A model generated the notes under the pieces. The model saw only the letters and a program-made list of their open reading frames with translations. It was not told the origin of the DNA and made no database searches. DNA of 19,376 nucleotides from a virus: the UHGV virus genome UHGV-1605165; one strand, written 5' to 3'. This document shows positions 1 through 6,322 of the stretch, piece by piece. Numbering within the stretch: the first letter of the stretch is position 1; each line of letters starts with the position of its first letter. The position numbers and the translations under genes were made by a program.

Positions 1-395
1 ATCACCTCCTGCTCCGGATCGGCGTCACTGTTTCCGTTGACGAAGTTCACCGCATCCAGAAAACGGGCGTAAACCTTACGCCGGACCACCGTTCCGCCGA
101 CCAGACTCTGCAGATCTTCCGCCATCCCGGTGACCATGCCGTGCAGGTTAGAGACCGTCAGTGTCGGACGGGCAGCACTGCCCTTGCCGTTCATCTCAAA
201 TCCACTCCCCTGAATGGGATAGGCCTGATACTGCCGACTCTGCCAGGTGACAGACTCACCTTTTTCATTCTGCTCATTGCAGAAAAAGTAGCGATCCCCG
301 CCTACCTCGGTCAGGTCGATTTCCCAGAGCACCACGCTGGCCGACTGCTCCGCACGAATGCATTCATTCAGCGTTTCCTGTTGTATGTCCTGCAT
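1..395 (-). CDS. L: minor tail protein L (lambda gpL-like), 5' part only; gene runs off the window edge
   Basis: Minus-strand translation from ATG 395..393 reads [47 protein letters not shown]..., which I recognise as near-identical to the lambda gpL N-terminus. Start overlaps the stop of M (TGATG). Absent from ORF track because no stop lies inside the window. Confidence 0.85.
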   Translation of the reverse strand, partial: MQDIQQETLNECIRAEQSASVVLWEIDLTEVGGDRYFFCNEQNEKGESVTWQSRQYQAYPIQGSGFEMNGKGSAARPTLTVSNLHGMVTGMAEDLQSLVGGTVVRRKVYARFLDAVNFVNGNSDADPEQEV

Positions 396-733
396 CAGAT
401 CACCACTTCGTCAAACTGACACGAAAAATCGGTATAGGTGATATGTTCTGTCGCTGACCACGTTCGACACACCACTCTGATTTTTCTGTTAATACCCGGC
501 GGGCGCCAAAAAAAAGATTTATAGCCTTCATGCCGGGCTAAAAATTTTTCAAATGAATCACGTTCATTCGCCTCAACTTTGAAATCACAGGTGAAAACGC
601 GCAGAGAATGATTAAGTCCATTTGGACTTCGTTGCTCATAACCATCGCCAAATCTTACAGTTTTTATCGATGGTTTATTTTCTGTTTTCATTCCATCCTC
701 TGGTAACCAGTGAAATTCTTCCGTATTAGCCAC
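395..733 (-). CDS. M: minor tail protein M (lambda gpM-like)
   Basis: 112 aa; [16 protein letters not shown]...FDEVVI matches the lambda gpM pattern (VRFGDGYSQRAPAGLN...FEQVVN) as I recall it. GTG start at 733 overlaps the tape-measure stop by 8 nt; canonical position between H and L. Confidence 0.85.
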
Positions 734-3700
734 TTAACATTCCCCCATCACGTCGCATATTTAACAGATTGCCCTGCACCCGCTGATCAACCATCCCCAT
801 AAGTGCTTTTATTGCCTGAGGGCCAATCTCTCCATTCTGGCCGTCATTTTGAATAGTGATTTGGTATACAGGGGCATAGGTAATATCTCCGCCTCCATTA
901 CCACTTTTACTATTAATAGCTCTGACACCAAGAGAACCATCGGAAGTTCGTGTTAATGGCATAATGGCTTCCGGACCAGCCTCACCAAAAACACCAGCCC
1001 CTTTTGCAAAAGCAAAAAATTGCGGGGAATCATAAATACCGTTCGAATACATGTTCAATGACGGAGACTCATAAACACCGCCCTTTGCATTCGGAATAAA
1101 TTTACTAATAGCACTCCCGATAGTTCCTAAAATCCCCCCAGAAGAACTGTTACTAATGCTGTCGAAAATCCCAGTAATTGAAGCCTTTAATGCTATTCGA
1201 CTAAGATCCGAAATCACGGAAGTAGCGAAAGAACGAAAATTTGCCTTGCCTGTCGTGACAAAATCACCCAGCGCATCGGTCATTCCATCAAACATCTGAG
1301 TCGTGGTTGATTTTATCTGCTCACTGATATCCTTAGTGTCATCCAGCCAGTTATTGAATCCCTGGGAGGCACCACTAACCCAGTCTCCTGCCTGAATATC
1401 GAGCTGCTCGTTTTTCTGTCTGACAATGTCTTTTTCTCGTTCCAGAGCATCATTCAGAGCCTGCATTTTCTCCTGAAAAACATGATTTGACATCCCACGG
1501 GATTTATCTGCATAGTCACGTTCAAGTTGCAGACGCTGATTGTTATATTCACGTTCAATCCGCAGTAATTCCTGCTGGCGTTGCTGATTTTTATCGCCAA
1601 CCCCATAACCAGCAATCTGAATATCATACCCCTGTTGACGATTATCAATCGAAGCCTGCAATGAATCACGCCATGCAGCTATTTCGGCGGATTCCTTGAT
1701 TAGCCTGTTATTTTTTTCAATCGCAACATTTTTCTCCATCAACGCGGTTATTTCTTCCCGGTGTAAGAGAAGCGATTTCTGATCCTGGGTTAATTTCGAT
1801 GACGGTCGTGACTCCAGGTTGGCAATCTGCTGACGCCACTTAACCAGTTCCTGTTCAGTGGAACTTAATTTAACGGTTAATTCAGTTTGTGAACTTAGTA
1901 ACGCATTCTGTTGATTCAGATGATCAATCATTCGTTGGGCAGCATCATCCGAATAACCTTTCGCCTTTGGTTGCTTTGGATCTTTATAACGCTCATTTAT
2001 TTGAGCGATAAGATTATTATATTCTTCCTTTGAATACTGACTCTTTAGCTTTTCCAGTTTTGCAAGTTCACTAGCTCTCTGCTGCTCCCGGGTCTGATAT
2101 TGTTTTGAAAAGGCATCTGCTCTCTGTCTGAGTTCAATTCCTTCCTGTTGTCGCTTGTTGTAATCGTTTATTGATGAATTTAGTACGTCCTGAGCAATTT
2201 TTTCTGCTTGAAGTGCGCCCAATTGCTGCTTTAATCGTGCCAGCCTTTTATTTTGAGCTCCGCCATCTCCAATGCCACCTAACCCGAAAACTCCGGGTCG
2301 GGTATTTTTTTCTATTTCATCAATTTGACGGAGAACATCTGAGATTTTTTGATCAAGGGAGGCCTCACGGCCAATATCCAGCATGGAATCCCATGCCCAT
2401 TTTGCGGAGTCTGCGACAGCTTTCCATGCAGTCTCAAGATAACCAAGATTTTCTTTAATCTGGTTGGTGCGCTGGATCATTGAGGATGAGTATGCTTCTG
2501 TCGCAATGCGGGCGGCCTCCTGCTGGTTCCCTTCATCCTGTAGCGCCTTAATCTGGTTATAAGTCGCAATTGTCAGAAAATGGTACTGATCATTAAGTTT
2601 TGATATGGCACTGACAGGATCCTTTGCAATTTCATTGAAGTCATTAACCAGTTGTTCGGTTGATATTCCTGTTACTTCGCTCGTTTTTACTATCGCTGTC
2701 GTCACTTGCTCCAGCGAACTGCTCGCTACCTTTCCCGAACGCACAAGCTGGTTTAATACTGCCGCCGCAGCGCCAGTTGTCGAATCAGCCGCATTCCCGG
2801 CACGTTGAGCTATATCGGCCAATTGCCCGCTGGTTGTCCCCAACTGATTTCCGGTAAGAATAAGAGATTTATTAAATTCGTCCTGCTCCTGAGAGCCTTT
2901 ATAGTAAGCCAGCCCTAAGACGCCAACGGCTGCTGCGGCCAGGGTAAAAGGATTAATTAATCCCAGCACATAAGAACCAACACCTTTGATCGCCGGGCCA
3001 ATCCCACCGAACATATCTTTTAGCTGGCCGCCCTGCTGCATTAACACCATAAAAGGCGACTGACCAGTGGACAACCCAACAACAATATCCGTCATTTGTG
3101 CAGGCAACATGCGCATAGCAAAAGCCGTTTGTTTTGCCGACATTCCGGTTTTGCTTAATTGAGATTGAGTAACCTCAAGCTCACTCCGCATAGCACGAAG
3201 TTTTCCAGAAAGTTCCTCATACATTTCAGGAGAGAGCATCCCCTTAGCTTTTGCTTCATTGAGCTGTTTCTGTTGTTCTACCAGACGATTAAAAGCAGTT
3301 CCGACAGGGTCAAGTTGAGCAATCAGACGTTGCAAAGCAGCAACCTGTTCATCATGCGCTTTTGCTGCTTCTCGCTCTGCCTGAGCCTCTCCGGTAAGCT
3401 CTCGCCGTGTTTCCTGTATTTTTCGGCTATAATTCTCAAACTGAGAACCATTTATTTTCCCGGATGCAAACGCAGCATTAAGTTCATCCTGCTGTTGTTC
3501 AAGATTTCTTAGCGCCGCAGCCAGAGGGTCGATCTTGTCCAGCATTCTTTGAAAGGCCTGAGCCTGCGCTTCCTGCTGGGCGGCAGCAAGTTTTCCGGCC
3601 TTCTCGGCTTCTCTCTGCGCTTGCGCAACCCCGCTCAATTCCTCTGTGGTTTCATTAAGTTTACGGACAAGAAATTCATATTCTTCTTTATCAATAAGCC

Positions 3701-3959
3701 CTTTATCGAAAAATTTCTTTAATTCAGAATAGCGTCGACCGACAGTATCAATTGCGGCACCAACTGGATCAATAGCTGCTTTTAATTTTGCGAGCGCGTT
3801 CTTCTCATCTTCTGTTGCCTTAGTCACTTTCCCTGCGCTATTTGCAGCAGTTTCCCCGGCCTGCGTCATTTTGACTAATGAGGAGGTCAGATTGTCAGCA
3901 TTATTTTTTGCTCCAGTGCTATCAATAATTATTGCGAGACGCGAGGTTTGCTCTGCCAT
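726..3959 (-). CDS. H: tail tape measure protein (lambda gpH-like)
   Basis: 1077 aa, coiled-coil rich. [39 protein letters not shown] and C-terminal [16 protein letters not shown]...[10 protein letters not shown] resemble lambda gpH. ATG 3959 with GGAG 8-9 nt upstream. Sits downstream of G/G-T and upstream of M and L. Confidence 0.9.
3210..3812 (-). repeat. three tandem, diverged ~60-70-codon coiled-coil repeats inside the tape measure gene
   Basis: Protein-level repeats share the pattern (I/L)DP(V/L)xxAxxx(L/V)...G(L/K/M)(I/L)...(Y/F)E...(K/R)(L/I)...EL(S/T/E)(G/V): [20 protein letters not shown]... / [20 protein letters not shown]... / [20 protein letters not shown].... Coordinates approximate, mapped from residues ~50-250. 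Confidence 0.5.
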
Positions 3960-3975
3960 TTATTAAAACTCCAGA

Positions 3976-4000
3976 CAACAAAAAGCCCACCGAAGTGGGT
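3976..4000 (-). terminator. putative weak intrinsic terminator or attenuator just upstream of the tape measure gene
   Basis: Minus-strand RNA: ACCCAC-UUCG-GUGGGC followed by UUUUUGUUG (5-bp GC-rich stem, UUCG tetraloop, U-run). Lies in the 163-bp gap between the G-T stop and the tape measure start. Confidence 0.35.
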
Positions 4001-4122
4001 TTCAGGCGACATAATAGTAGATATAGCGATTACGAGGCCACGCAATGCTTTTCTCCAGGAGCATCATCGATTTAATTAAAGACACCATCACATCTCTGTA
4101 ACAGAGTGTACGTAATTAACAA

Positions 4123-4443
4123 CTACACACACTGATCCTGAAAATACTGGTCATCCAGTGCAAAGATCACTGCTTCAAACTCATCGCGCTCAATCAATAC
4201 CGGATGAGTGGCTAAATATTCATTTATCTCTGTCAGAGATAAAGGCAAAGGCACCCCGGTCATTCCAGCATAACGTCGGGCACGGGATATTACCGAATAG
4301 GCGTACAACAATTCCTTAAGCACCGGGTCTATTTCTGGTTCCGGTATCGGTGGCAACCTGAGTTTTTCTCGCTTCCATCTTGCCTTTTCCCCCCTTTCTC
4401 CCCCGAACTCCGATAACCACCGCTGGGCGGCTATGGCTTTTTT
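4123..4443 (-). CDS. T-like extension of the tail assembly chaperone, expressed only as a G-T fusion by -1 programmed frameshift
   Basis: The -1 frame relative to G is open from 4467 to the TAG at 4125..4123 and overlaps the G 3' end. The ORF-track entry 4123..4356 starts at a TTG with no independent start signal. Canonical position between G and the tape measure. Confidence 0.6.
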   Translation of the reverse strand, partial: KKAIAAQRWLSEFGGERGEKARWKREKLRLPPIPEPEIDPVLKELLYAYSVISRARRYAGMTGVPLPLSLTEINEYLATHPVLIERDEFEAVIFALDDQYFQDQCV

Positions 4444-4892
4444 ATCGTATCCTGCTTCTGCTGCTCTTTACCCTGGGCGATGCTGGCTGCTTCTGCAAGG
4501 ATCTGCCAGTACAACTCTGGATTCTGCTTAAGCAGCGCGATCCCTCGTTCTGGCGTATATTCCAGTGCAACCTCAGCACCATTAACCAGTTCACCAACCC
4601 CTTTCCAGTCTTTCAGCAGATAACGAGCAGCATTATCAATGAGTAAATCATCAACAGAATCTACCTCGGAAACCTTTGAAATATCAAACTCCTTCGTTCC
4701 GACGTGCAAACTGGCATCCATTTTCTCAATGTGACGACGGATTAATGCATTACGGGAGCGATACTGATCGTTATCGCTGCTTGCCACCAACAGTTTTAAC
4801 CCGTCTACAGGTTTTAAGTCCTTCATTGGCGTAAACCAGCGTTCTCCACCGATGATAATTTTCTGATTAAGAATAAACATCCATAACCTCAT
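4431..4892 (-). CDS. tail assembly chaperone (gpG-like)
   Basis: 153-aa ORF between tail tube and tape measure, carrying the frameshift site at its 3' end. Start is ATG 4892 or more likely ATG 4880 (GAGG 6 nt upstream). No similarity to lambda G that I recognise; call is by position and recoding signal. Confidence 0.7.
   Translation of the reverse strand: MRLWMFILNQKIIIGGERWFTPMKDLKPVDGLKLLVASSDNDQYRSRNALIRRHIEKMDASLHVGTKEFDISKVSEVDSVDDLLIDNAARYLLKDWKGVGELVNGAEVALEYTPERGIALLKQNPELYWQILAEAASIAQGKEQQKQDTIKKP
4437..4443 (-). other. -1 programmed ribosomal frameshift slippery heptamer A_AAA_AAG
   Basis: In the G frame the last codons are AUA AAA AAG CCA UAG (..I K K P stop). Heptamer A AAA AAG at 4443..4437 fits X_XXY_YYZ and is a known bacterial/phage slippery site. 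Shifting -1 enters the open T frame. Confidence 0.6.
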
Positions 4893-4901
4893 TCAATGCG
4901 T

Positions 4902-4928
4902 CCCCCTGTAGTGCAGTACCACAGGGGG
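4902..4928 (-). promoter_or_regulatory. intergenic RNA stem-loop between tail tube and chaperone genes
   Basis: Perfect 8-bp inverted repeat CCCCCTGT / ACAGGGGG with an 11-nt loop, located between the tail tube stop (4943..4941) and the G start. No U-tract follows on the mRNA strand, so not a classical terminator. Confidence 0.4.
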
Positions 4929-4940
4929 AATAACGGAAAA

Positions 4941-5903
4941 TCAACTAATCGCATCAGCCCTGGCTTTTGCGATCACGGCAGTCGGGGAGCATTTTTTTCT
5001 GGTTATCGTAGGTGCTTCATCTGCTGCGGTAATGCTCAATTGAACCTGGATAATGTCAGTATTACCCCCATCAGGCCATTCACCTGACACCTGAACCTTC
5101 GGGAAACTGAAAGTGTATGCCCCCTCTCCATTCGAAAGCGTGAAGCTGAACGGAACTGTTTCTCCAGTCAGTGTTTTACTCCAGATTTCCCACGCGGCTT
5201 TAGACCATGAAAGCGTCACCGTACCGGACGGTGTAAAAGTAGTCGGAATATTTGCTCCTGCATAAGGCGAGCCAGTCCCGATACAACGCTGTGTCTGGAG
5301 TTTGTTATCGAACTGAATATCAAAACTGTCGATACAAAAACCGTTACCTCCGGCAACACCATTCAGGCTTACTGCTGAAACCTCCTTAAACGAATAGCGT
5401 AACTTTCCTGCACTATCCACAGGTTTGCCTTTGATAAAATTCGTATCATCGGCCTTTGTTTCCCAGCCCAGCCCGGCAAAGGTTACGGTCGCTGTAATAT
5501 CGCCGTCGTTAGGGATCTGCATTTTCCATGAGCCAACCTGCGCTCCTCTGACGACAGAGGCAATTCCGACATCGGACGCATAGGTCGCCAGAGAAAATGT
5601 TATTCGCTCATTCCCCATTGTCAGAGAATCGCCTGACCATTCCGCGCCGAAACAGGATGCAAGAAAATCATCATGTTGACCCCAGCGAAATTTGGTACCA
5701 ACATCACCGCCGACATCCACAGTGCAAGGCGTCGCCCCCTGAGCCATCCGGGAGCCACCAATCTCATTATTTTCGCCTTTATTCTGGGTGGGTTTTACTC
5801 CCCAGCTTGTGCGTTTTAATAAACTCCAGTCACCACTTGCTGGCGTAGTGCCTGCAACTGTCTCCCGGATAAATGCCGAGATAACCTTTGCACCTGAACT
5901 CAC
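4941..5903 (-). CDS. major tail tube protein
   Basis: 320 aa, Gly/Thr/Ser-rich, immediately upstream of G/G-T/tape measure. GTG start at 5903 preceded by AGGAGG with 5-nt spacing. Not lambda gpV-like by my recollection; call by position and composition. Confidence 0.65.
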   Translation of the reverse strand: MSSGAKVISAFIRETVAGTTPASGDWSLLKRTSWGVKPTQNKGENNEIGGSRMAQGATPCTVDVGGDVGTKFRWGQHDDFLASCFGAEWSGDSLTMGNERITFSLATYASDVGIASVVRGAQVGSWKMQIPNDGDITATVTFAGLGWETKADDTNFIKGKPVDSAGKLRYSFKEVSAVSLNGVAGGNGFCIDSFDIQFDNKLQTQRCIGTGSPYAGANIPTTFTPSGTVTLSWSKAAWEIWSKTLTGETVPFSFTLSNGEGAYTFSFPKVQVSGEWPDGGNTDIIQVQLSITAADEAPTITRKKCSPTAVIAKARADAIS

Positions 5904-5929: not shown

Positions 5930-6322
5930 CTAGAGCGCGCGATATGGAATTTGAAGATTAAGCTGGAACCAGCCATTCTTTTCGCCGACGGCTATTGAGG
6001 AAACAGCCTGGTAACTGAGACGATCGTCATCCTGAAACTCAAACAGTTCCCGCAATTTATCGGCTGTCTCAGTAATGAGTTTTGAACCAGAACCTGCGGG
6101 GACAAATAACTGAATAATGATTATCCCCGTGCGATAAACAACCGGCCCCGCGCCAATTTCATTAACCCCAGCCTGCCCGGGAATATTACTTAACCGCGCC
6201 CAGATTAACTTACCGGAAGGATCGAACGTTGGCCCGTTCGGATACAATACGTCTTTTCCATCAATAATCGTCTGTGCCGTCATTCTGGAAATAACCGTAT
6301 TTCTGATTTCAGTAAACTTCAT
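5930..6322 (-). CDS. tail terminator / tail completion protein (putative)
   Basis: 130 aa; ATG 6322 overlaps the upstream stop (ATGA); last of four coupled small genes between coat and tail tube, the usual place of the tail terminator. Confidence 0.5.
   Translation of the reverse strand: MKFTEIRNTVISRMTAQTIIDGKDVLYPNGPTFDPSGKLIWARLSNIPGQAGVNEIGAGPVVYRTGIIIIQLFVPAGSGSKLITETADKLRELFEFQDDDRLSYQAVSSIAVGEKNGWFQLNLQIPYRAL

Follow-up and report, generated by a model that had tools for sequence, protein, structure and literature searches.

A predicted -1 ribosomal frameshift at A_AAA_AAG in the tail assembly chaperone locus of a Rac-type Escherichia coli prophage

The stretch of DNA that was analyzed (the window) comprises 19,376 nucleotides of a virus genome and carries the tail genes of a prophage on its minus strand. 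Prophages almost identical to this region occur in 1073 of 5426 complete E. coli genomes, and the window is 91.9% identical to the contig behind one of the loci compared below (L077). The ORF at the chaperone position is the RefSeq gene ydaY, known from the Rac prophage of strain K-12. Together with the near-identity to E. coli prophages, this indicates, on sequence grounds, that the window represents the intact form of a Rac-type structural module of which only a remnant is left in K-12, where Rac is a decayed prophage and its ydaY is truncated. Elsewhere, the window carries an intact structural module whose genes are open, and farther upstream lie genes for a P22-type coat protein, a Mu-F-like protein, a probable portal protein (DUF4055), the large and small terminase subunits and a TrkH-family transporter. 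The features of the chaperone locus and its surroundings are as follows.

6322..5930, minus strand: tail terminator gene
4941..5903, minus strand: major tail tube protein gene, directly upstream of the chaperone gene (Pfam Phage_tube_2, E 2.6e-30; RefSeq 'phage tail tube protein')
4431..4880, minus strand: G, a predicted tail assembly chaperone of the ydaY family, 149 aa, from ATG 4880, conserved across genera, to the stop codon TAG 4433..4431
4450..4453, minus strand: AGGA, a Shine-Dalgarno-like tetramer 6 nt upstream of the heptamer, read from the sequence
4437..4443, minus strand: candidate slippery heptamer A_AAA_AAG in X_XXY_YYZ phase, followed by CC and then by the G stop codon TAG
4413..4434, minus strand: local hairpin AUAGCCGCC-CAGC-GGUGGUUAU, beginning 2 nt after the heptamer, MFE -14.2 kcal/mol
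4123..4437, minus strand: putative T segment in the -1 frame, 104 codons from GCC 4437..4435 through GTG 4128..4126, with the stop codon TAG 4125..4123
3960..4122, minus strand: 163-nt spacer from the T stop to the tape measure start, containing a terminator-like hairpin
726..3959, minus strand: tail tape measure gene, 1077 aa (Pfam TMP_2, 1.1e-81; TMP_4; Tape_meas_lam_C, 3.9e-26), the presumed partner of G and G-T
733..395, minus strand: lambda-like M gene
After M, minus strand: start of a lambda-like L gene, which runs off the window edge

Along the minus strand, the order is therefore tail tube, chaperone G, a -1-frame ORF, the spacer and the tape measure gene, and two overlapping ORFs lie between the tube (5903..4941) and tape measure (3959..726) genes, as in a G/G-T pair. 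An earlier note on this DNA had described the neighbouring L, M and H genes as lambda-like, and this was borne out for all three, H being the tape measure gene. The T stop and the tape measure gene are not adjacent; the 163-nt spacer lies between them.

The start of G that is conserved across genera is the ATG at 4880 (MFILNQK.. / MLII..), with GAGG 6 nt upstream; the ATG at 4892, previously given as the start, is an in-frame alternative four codons upstream. From ATG 4880 the protein has 149 residues (153 from ATG 4892) and a mass of 16.9 kDa. Its family and its predicted fold identify G as a tail assembly chaperone: it matches PHROG 313 'tail assembly chaperone' (E 1e-46, 161 bits), and its AlphaFold model (pLDDT 80.5, from 59 sequences) matches the HK97 chaperone 2OB9 and numerous viral proteins that bear the name of a tail assembly chaperone or a tape measure chaperone. 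A local Pfam-A search returned no match for G, an NCBIfam search no family for G or T, and profile searches of both against PDB sequences no matches; nor was any similarity of G and T to lambda gpG/gpT detectable (best blastp E 28). Chaperones of this kind are highly diverged, and the dissimilarity to the lambda proteins is therefore not informative on the mechanism.

The 3' end of the G ORF reads ...GAT ACG ATA AAA AAG CCA TAG. The first A of the heptamer AAAAAAG (4443..4437) is the third base of the ATA codon, which sets the heptamer in X_XXY_YYZ phase, and one sense codon (CCA) lies between the heptamer and the G stop. In the -1 frame, a TAA at 4470..4468 is followed by 114 open codons, from 4467 to the TAG at 4125..4123. 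The earlier note had read the chaperone ORF as ending in AUA AAA AAG CCA UAG and the -1 frame as open from 4467 for about 114 codons, and inspection of the sequence and translation confirmed both readings. Joining of the two frames at the heptamer, join(4880..4437, 4437..4123), yields a conceptual G-T fusion of 252 aa and 28.75 kDa, in agreement with the fusion of about 28 kDa that had been proposed. The predicted peptide after the slip is ...DTIKK-AIAAQRW..., with a K-K-A junction spanned by ...QQKQDTIKKAIAAQRWLSE, and the 104 residues appended by the slip are AIAAQRWLSEFGG...QDQCV.

The length of the -1 ORF was compared with that of other open stretches in the window. None of 2930 -1-frame positions in 12 neighbouring genes had at least 104 open codons (maximum 73, median 7). 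A scan of the minus-strand ORFs of the window for in-phase X_XXY_YYZ heptamers with Y = A or T gave 25 sites, among which only that at 4443..4437 precedes a long -1 ORF, with 104 open codons versus 33 for the next best. Taken together, the two scans indicate that the long -1 ORF behind the heptamer is not due to chance. At the remaining in-phase heptamers of the window the -1 frame soon closes, and these sites were set aside as incidental.

The conservation of the site was analyzed in 95 loci, consisting of 14 loci from bacterial contigs (one genome per species), 80 viral contigs and one phage record; 52 of the 95 are distinct in G plus T. An in-phase slippery heptamer, either AAAAAAG or GGGAAAG, lies at the same aligned codon in all of them (95/95). 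AAAAAAG is found in the Escherichia, Shigella, Salmonella-like, Citrobacter, Siccibacter, Dryocola and Scandinavium loci, and GGGAAAG, the lambda heptamer, in Raoultella and two Pantoea loci (L010, L012 and L015). Where GGGAAAG is used, the codons specify GK instead of KK but slipperiness is retained, and the amino acid at the slip codon thus appears to be free to change as long as slipperiness is maintained. The 0-frame tail after the heptamer is 1, 7, 25 or 35 codons long depending on the lineage. The -1 peptide, A[IL].AQ.W[LI].EFGGE.GEKA.W.REKL, is conserved from codon 1 (it reads AIAAQRWLSEFGGERGEKARWKREKL in the window and ALEAQKWLNLNSGEKGEKNRWKRERL in Pantoea), and this conservation from the first residue extends to Citrobacter, Raoultella, Siccibacter, Scandinavium and Pantoea as well as to Erwinia and Pseudomonas phages. 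Column variability by codon phase, calculated over 15 diverse loci, was 0.375/0.122/0.077 in the 120 nt before the heptamer, which is the wobble pattern of frame 0, and 0.154/0.118/0.37 in the 115 nt after it, which is that of frame -1. The selected coding frame switches from 0 to -1 at the heptamer.

More distant homologs were found by tblastn with the conceptual fusion, which gave two-frame matches in Klebsiella phages, Erwinia phage Gungnir39 and Pseudomonas syringae phages, the last at approximately 32% identity. At the homologous site, the Pseudomonas phages have CTG GAA AAG, that is G_GAA_AAG, and Gungnir39 has GTC GCA AAG TAA, in which a stop codon comes immediately after the tetramer A_AAG; the -1 peptide begins at this site with KAIARFQW... 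in the former and KVIEAQEWLNEFGG... in the latter. The P-site half of the slip site therefore varies, from A_AA (Escherichia and Citrobacter) through G_GG (Raoultella and Pantoea) and G_GA (Pseudomonas phages, in which the re-pairing would be near-cognate) to C_GC (Gungnir39). The A-site tetramer A_AAG is kept even in the Pseudomonas phage and Gungnir39 variants, which suggests that it is the invariant core of the slip site across the chaperone family. In E. coli, A_AAG is the tetramer most prone to shifting (PMC4066793). It is unusual for one homologous codon to show so many variants of the slip site.

The -1 segment was also characterized as a protein. T alone matches PHROG 1189, a family with no assigned function (E 5.6e-36), and scores 20.3 bits (E 6e-4) against Pfam PF23812 Phage_TAC_18, below the gathering cut-off of 27 bits; Phage_TAC_18 matches at E <=0.1 were obtained for 14 of 17 relatives, the best at 2.9e-4. 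The T model (pLDDT 79.3) gave weak Foldseek matches (E 0.0065-0.08), which include fused chaperones also matched by G, namely CcrColossus K4K660 and Acinetobacter phage Loki A0A0P1KKK4. The conceptual G-T protein gives a single continuous match to PHROG 313, over positions 20-245 of 258, with 176 bits versus 161 bits for G alone, and its match to PHROG 8233 improves from E 0.009 (G alone) to 1e-7. The single stretch and the higher score against PHROG 313 indicate that the slip junction is colinear with families in which some chaperone entries are fused.

On the basis of the sequence, we consider it highly probable (about 0.9) that the prophage makes its tail chaperone in two forms, G and G-T, by a -1 ribosomal slip at A_AAA_AAG. 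A programmed -1 frameshift of the G/G-T type was the central proposal of the earlier note, and it is supported by the heptamer at the same codon of every locus compared, the frame switch, the conserved -1 peptide and the chaperone family of the product. In this mechanism, most ribosomes would translate the 149 aa of G and terminate at TAG 4433..4431, and a minority, with two lysine tRNAs on AAA AAG, would slip back one base and re-pair to AAA AAA. The slipped ribosomes would then read GCC AUA GCC... in the -1 frame as far as TAG 4125..4123 and produce the 252-aa G-T. In the lambda paradigm, G and T bind the tape measure protein and the major tail protein, respectively, and both are absent from virions. 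If the prophage proteins act as lambda gpG and gpGT do, the G portion common to both forms would coat the tape measure protein, the less abundant T extension would recruit the tube protein and the slip rate would set a fixed G:G-T ratio; the binding roles of G and T are presumed from this analogy.

The same fusion might be produced at another stage of expression. If RNA polymerase added one A in the A6 run (ATAAAAAAG), standard translation would yield the same G-T, and poly-A runs have been discussed as sources of transcriptional slippage (PMC4066793). One inserted A would give an identical KK-AIAAQ junction, and the protein sequence would therefore not separate the two mechanisms. However, the A run is only six long in the window, and only three to four identical bases are present in GGGAAAG, in the GGAAAAG of the Pseudomonas phages and in the GCAAAG-TAA of Gungnir39. 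The conserved trait is the in-phase potential for tRNA-Lys re-pairing, that is the A_AAG core, and not homopolymer length. We regard transcriptional slippage as very unlikely, and the slippage is presumed to be ribosomal.

Alternatively, T may be a separate gene, expressed without any fusion, either from a start of its own, be it TTG 4356 or a codon farther inside, or by ribosomes that reinitiate once they have terminated at the G stop. The database annotation is of this form, since GenBank and RefSeq give a separate 'hypothetical protein' of 61-66 aa and gene callers output standalone T proteins; however, these proteins have arbitrary lengths (60-138 aa), are never named and start at inconsistent positions. 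In the window, the ORF list contains a 77-aa ORF in the -1 frame that begins with a TTG (4356..4123). This TTG was said in the earlier note to have no independent start signal, which proved correct: no Shine-Dalgarno motif was found 4-16 nt upstream, and the TTG itself is absent beyond the close Escherichia/Salmonella group. The 27 codons from the heptamer to the TTG are nevertheless conserved as protein across genera, and the -1 wobble periodicity starts at the heptamer. The only start-type codon of the -1 segment that the relatives share is codon 58, which encodes a conserved Met inside the protein, and in three lineages no ATG, GTG or TTG occurs before it. Reinitiation at the G stop is further opposed by the conservation of the -1 peptide from the heptamer even where the stop lies 7-35 codons downstream. 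The conserved N-terminal peptide of the -1 frame, the frame switch and the lack of a shared early start together exclude independent initiation and reinitiation as the origin of the conserved N-terminal part of T, and we consider a separate T gene to be extremely improbable.

It is just as improbable that the two frames arose by mutation or sequencing error from an ancestral single ORF in a decaying prophage, with the heptamer incidental, for although A runs are indel-prone, the K-12 Rac prophage is decayed with a truncated ydaY and a database protein of 240 aa (P0001) has G and T in one frame, the two-frame architecture is present in 1061 E. coli genomes (at least 80% coverage) and in independent genera down to approximately 32% protein identity, the structural genes in the rest of the window are open, and P0001 joins G and T by an internal deletion, apparently of approximately 35 nt between GCAGAAGCAG repeats as judged from the protein, with the A run unchanged.

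Returning to ribosomal slippage at A_AAA_AAG, RNA elements that may stimulate it were sought on both sides of the heptamer. The earlier note had suggested folding the downstream RNA in search of a stimulatory structure. The hairpin at 4434..4413 is present in the window, but it is neither significant (z -1.05; 24 of 200 shuffles fold as well) nor conserved: the 97-nt region at the heptamer has a folding z of -0.69, individual folds range in z from -1.05 to +0.53, and an alignment fold of 12 relatives gave a consensus of -2.6 kcal/mol with no supported helix. The hairpin is specific to this lineage, being absent from relatives, and is probably not a selected stimulator. No conserved stem-loop or pseudoknot of the dnaX/IS type was found 5-9 nt from the heptamer, and an Rfam scan of 3800..5000 at E up to 1 returned only a chance 15-bit snoRNA fragment. 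Upstream, the AGGA at 4453..4450 is a possible weak stimulator of the slip, at the near end of the 6-17 nt range for a dnaX/IS-type Shine-Dalgarno-like element; 12 of 15 diverse relatives have AGGA at this distance of 6 nt, where it overlaps conserved Gln-Glu/Asp codons, so that selection on RNA and on protein are inseparable. The two bases following the heptamer (4443..4437) are CC, the most shift-prone 3' dinucleotide reported (PMC5009743).

The slip efficiency is probably low, from <1% to a few percent, as expected from the lack of a conserved stimulator. In an E. coli reporter, AAAAAAG gave 0.29, 4.3 and 39% with no, IS911 and IS3 stimulators, respectively, and GGGAAAG gave 0.28, 3.8 and 43% (PMC4066793 Table S3). 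These near-equal values fit the free interchange of the two heptamers in the ydaY family, and the efficiency in the prophage could be as low as 0.3%, the value measured for the bare heptamer. The expected range is the regime of lambda, in which the gpG:gpGT ratio is approximately 30:1 (PMC5009743).

The spacer between T and the tape measure gene has features of its own. A terminator scan found a terminator-like hairpin at 3999..3986 with a T-run, just before the ribosome-binding site of the tape measure gene. The arrangement of hairpin, T-run, GGAG and ATG is kept in 12 of 12 relatives with differing stem sequences, and the length of the spacer among relatives ranges from 29 to 2119 nt. It is unusual for a terminator-like hairpin to be structurally conserved at the end of a length-variable spacer, directly before a tape measure gene. 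As a tentative suggestion, which we think is less likely to be right than wrong, the slip-site variants may form an evolutionary series from tandem-tRNA heptamers to a single-tRNA tetramer-plus-stop, with the hairpin providing a second, transcriptional layer of stoichiometry control and marking a slot for cargo insertion.

The ydaY-family chaperone is present in approximately one fifth of complete E. coli genomes (1073/5426). Its annotation is uniformly 'protein YdaY' together with a 'hypothetical protein', and in none of them is it described as a frameshifted tail assembly chaperone. RefSeq shortens ydaY in intact prophages to 119 aa, the length annotated for ydaY of K-12. No joined CDS was annotated in the records of the relatives that were checked, and a search of the literature on ydaY or Rac together with frameshifting found no paper or record describing this frameshift, although Gurvich et al. 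(2003), on A_AAA_AAG in E. coli K-12 genes, or Xu et al. (2004) could already list ydaY/Rac. The main value of the result lies in annotation, and the understanding of frameshifting or tail assembly is unchanged. The G/G-T pair assigns a function to ydaY, a K-12 gene that has long been without a known one. In addition, the family is a clean, well-sampled addition to the training and test sets of frameshift predictors, and it provides naturally occurring exchanges of the heptamer at a single homologous position (A_AAA_AAG, G_GGA_AAG and non-canonical variants).

Several known systems can be compared with this locus. The heptamer A_AAA_AAG is also that of IS elements. In E. coli dnaX (tau/gamma), a single tRNA-Lys re-pairs from AAG to AAA on A_AAA_AAG (PMC5009743), and the heptamer and the tRNA are the same as in the window. 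In contrast, dnaX has a strong upstream Shine-Dalgarno-like element and a downstream stem-loop, neither of which shows evidence of selection in the family of the window, and the shift truncates the dnaX product, whereas here it would extend G. A closer precedent is ECs1801 of the Sakai prophage Sp9, which is listed in cluster A_AAA_AAG_25 as 'tail assembly chaperone; [true]' (Sharma et al., 2014; PMC4066793 Table S4). The sequence of ECs1801/ECs1802 was checked and ends in ...AAA AAG TAG with a 102-codon -1 ORF. Like the window, Sp9 belongs to E. coli, carries the same A_AAA_AAG in the last codons of its chaperone ORF, has a -1 ORF of about 100 codons (102 versus 104) and places both between the major tail and tape measure genes. 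The proteins, however, are unrelated to G-T of the window (best blastp E 0.74), TAG follows the heptamer directly where CCA intervenes in the window, and G has 124 aa versus 149 aa. The likeness to the HK97 tail assembly chaperone (PDB 2OB9) is one of fold, as predicted by the G model.

According to the passages of PMC5009743 and PMC10885494 that cite Levin (1993) and Xu (2004), the G/G-T -1 frameshift is conserved in long-tailed phages, and lambda gpG/gpGT is described in PMC5009743 as a -1 frameshift at G_GGA_AAG (Levin et al., 1993; Xu, Hendrix & Duda, 2004, 2013, 2014). The window differs from lambda in that the G and T sequences have no detectable similarity, T has 104 aa versus 144 aa, the tube protein belongs to another family (Phage_tube_2), and the T stop is followed by the 163-nt spacer with its terminator-like hairpin, whereas T of lambda overlaps H. 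The heptamer also differs, and the earlier note had regarded A_AAA_AAG in place of G_GGA_AAG as noteworthy. This is not the case, because A_AAA_AAG is a classic E. coli slip site with a precedent in ECs1801, and some ydaY-family relatives carry the exact heptamer of lambda. Both loci lie between the major tail and tape measure genes, both have an in-phase heptamer ending in A_AAG near the G stop (five codons away in lambda and one in the window) and a -1 ORF without a start of its own, and in neither is a conserved downstream structure required. The predicted ydaY-family frameshift is thus an ordinary, previously unannotated case of the known G/G-T mechanism.

The distance from the stop codon of T, the segment in the -1 frame, to the start of the tape measure gene ranges from 29 to 2119 nt across the relatives, and extra ORFs lie inside the longer gaps; the related loci cited for this gap are L004, L011, L013, L015, L024, L070, L083 and L089, together with the window, in which the gap is the spacer 3960..4122. 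As judged from these sequences, the gap looks like an insertion slot for cargo (moron) genes within the tail operon. Two features were located inside the spacer of the window.

3976..3999, minus strand: terminator-like hairpin, CCCAC-TTCG-GTGGG plus CTTTTTGTTG
4002..4088, minus strand: 28-codon ORF with an ATG start, MVSLIKSMMLLEKSIAWPRNRYIYYYVA, which occupies most of the spacer and stops just short of the hairpin

In the window, the ATG of the tape measure gene and its GGAG are found approximately 25 nt downstream of the hairpin. The order of a GC hairpin, a run of five to seven T, G(C/T)CCGGAG and ATG was kept in all 12 of the relatives compared, which were those with a locatable tape measure start. 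The stem sequences of the hairpin vary between lineages. The arrangement before the tape measure gene is present even where the gap after T is just 29-39 nt. The hairpin may terminate cargo transcripts in the lysogen, or it may attenuate expression of the tape measure gene. The 28-codon ORF is probably not a conserved gene, because its ATG is replaced by ATA in one related locus (L075).

One record, E. coli 266917_2 (L101), is 99.9% identical to the window across 3.9 kb. In the intact prophages L101 and L001, the RefSeq ydaY is only 119 aa in length compared with 149 aa for the conserved ORF; 119 aa is also the annotated length of ydaY in K-12. In the same two records the tape measure gene is marked as a pseudogene ('internal stop'), although the corresponding ORF of the window (3959..726) is open over 1077 codons.

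Elsewhere in the window, two further in-phase slippery heptamers, both probably incidental, and a transporter gene were recorded.

4992..4998, minus strand: A_AAA_AAA in the tail tube gene, 20 codons before its stop end, where the -1 tail has 12 codons
14450..14456, minus strand: A_AAA_AAG in the small terminase gene, with a -1 tail of eight codons
16734..18209, minus strand: gene for a potassium transporter of the TrkH family (Pfam E 5e-145), adjoining the terminase genes

The transporter gene is the counterpart of trkG of Rac and constitutes a host-type cargo gene within the prophage.

A rare natural variant, the E. coli protein P0001 (240 aa), carries G and T in a single frame. To judge from its amino acids, some 35 nt have been deleted between two GCAGAAGCAG repeats that lie shortly before the heptamer, and a gene of this type would yield the fusion alone, without free G.

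Among the distant relatives, at the homologous codon, the Pseudomonas phages Aurca01 and phiPSA1 (L096 and L098) have G_GAA_AAG, and Erwinia phage Gungnir39 (L097) has GCA_AAG followed directly by TAA. Both sites are non-canonical, the A_AAG tetramer is the only part of the slip site kept in the three phages, and their records contain no frameshift annotation. In the K-12-type Rac remnant (L008, L009 and L100), ydaY lacks its N-terminal third and abuts ynaK. The heptamer and T frame were checked in L008 and L009, with L100 consulted for annotation only; in both, an intact A_AAA_AAG and the full 104-codon T frame persist.
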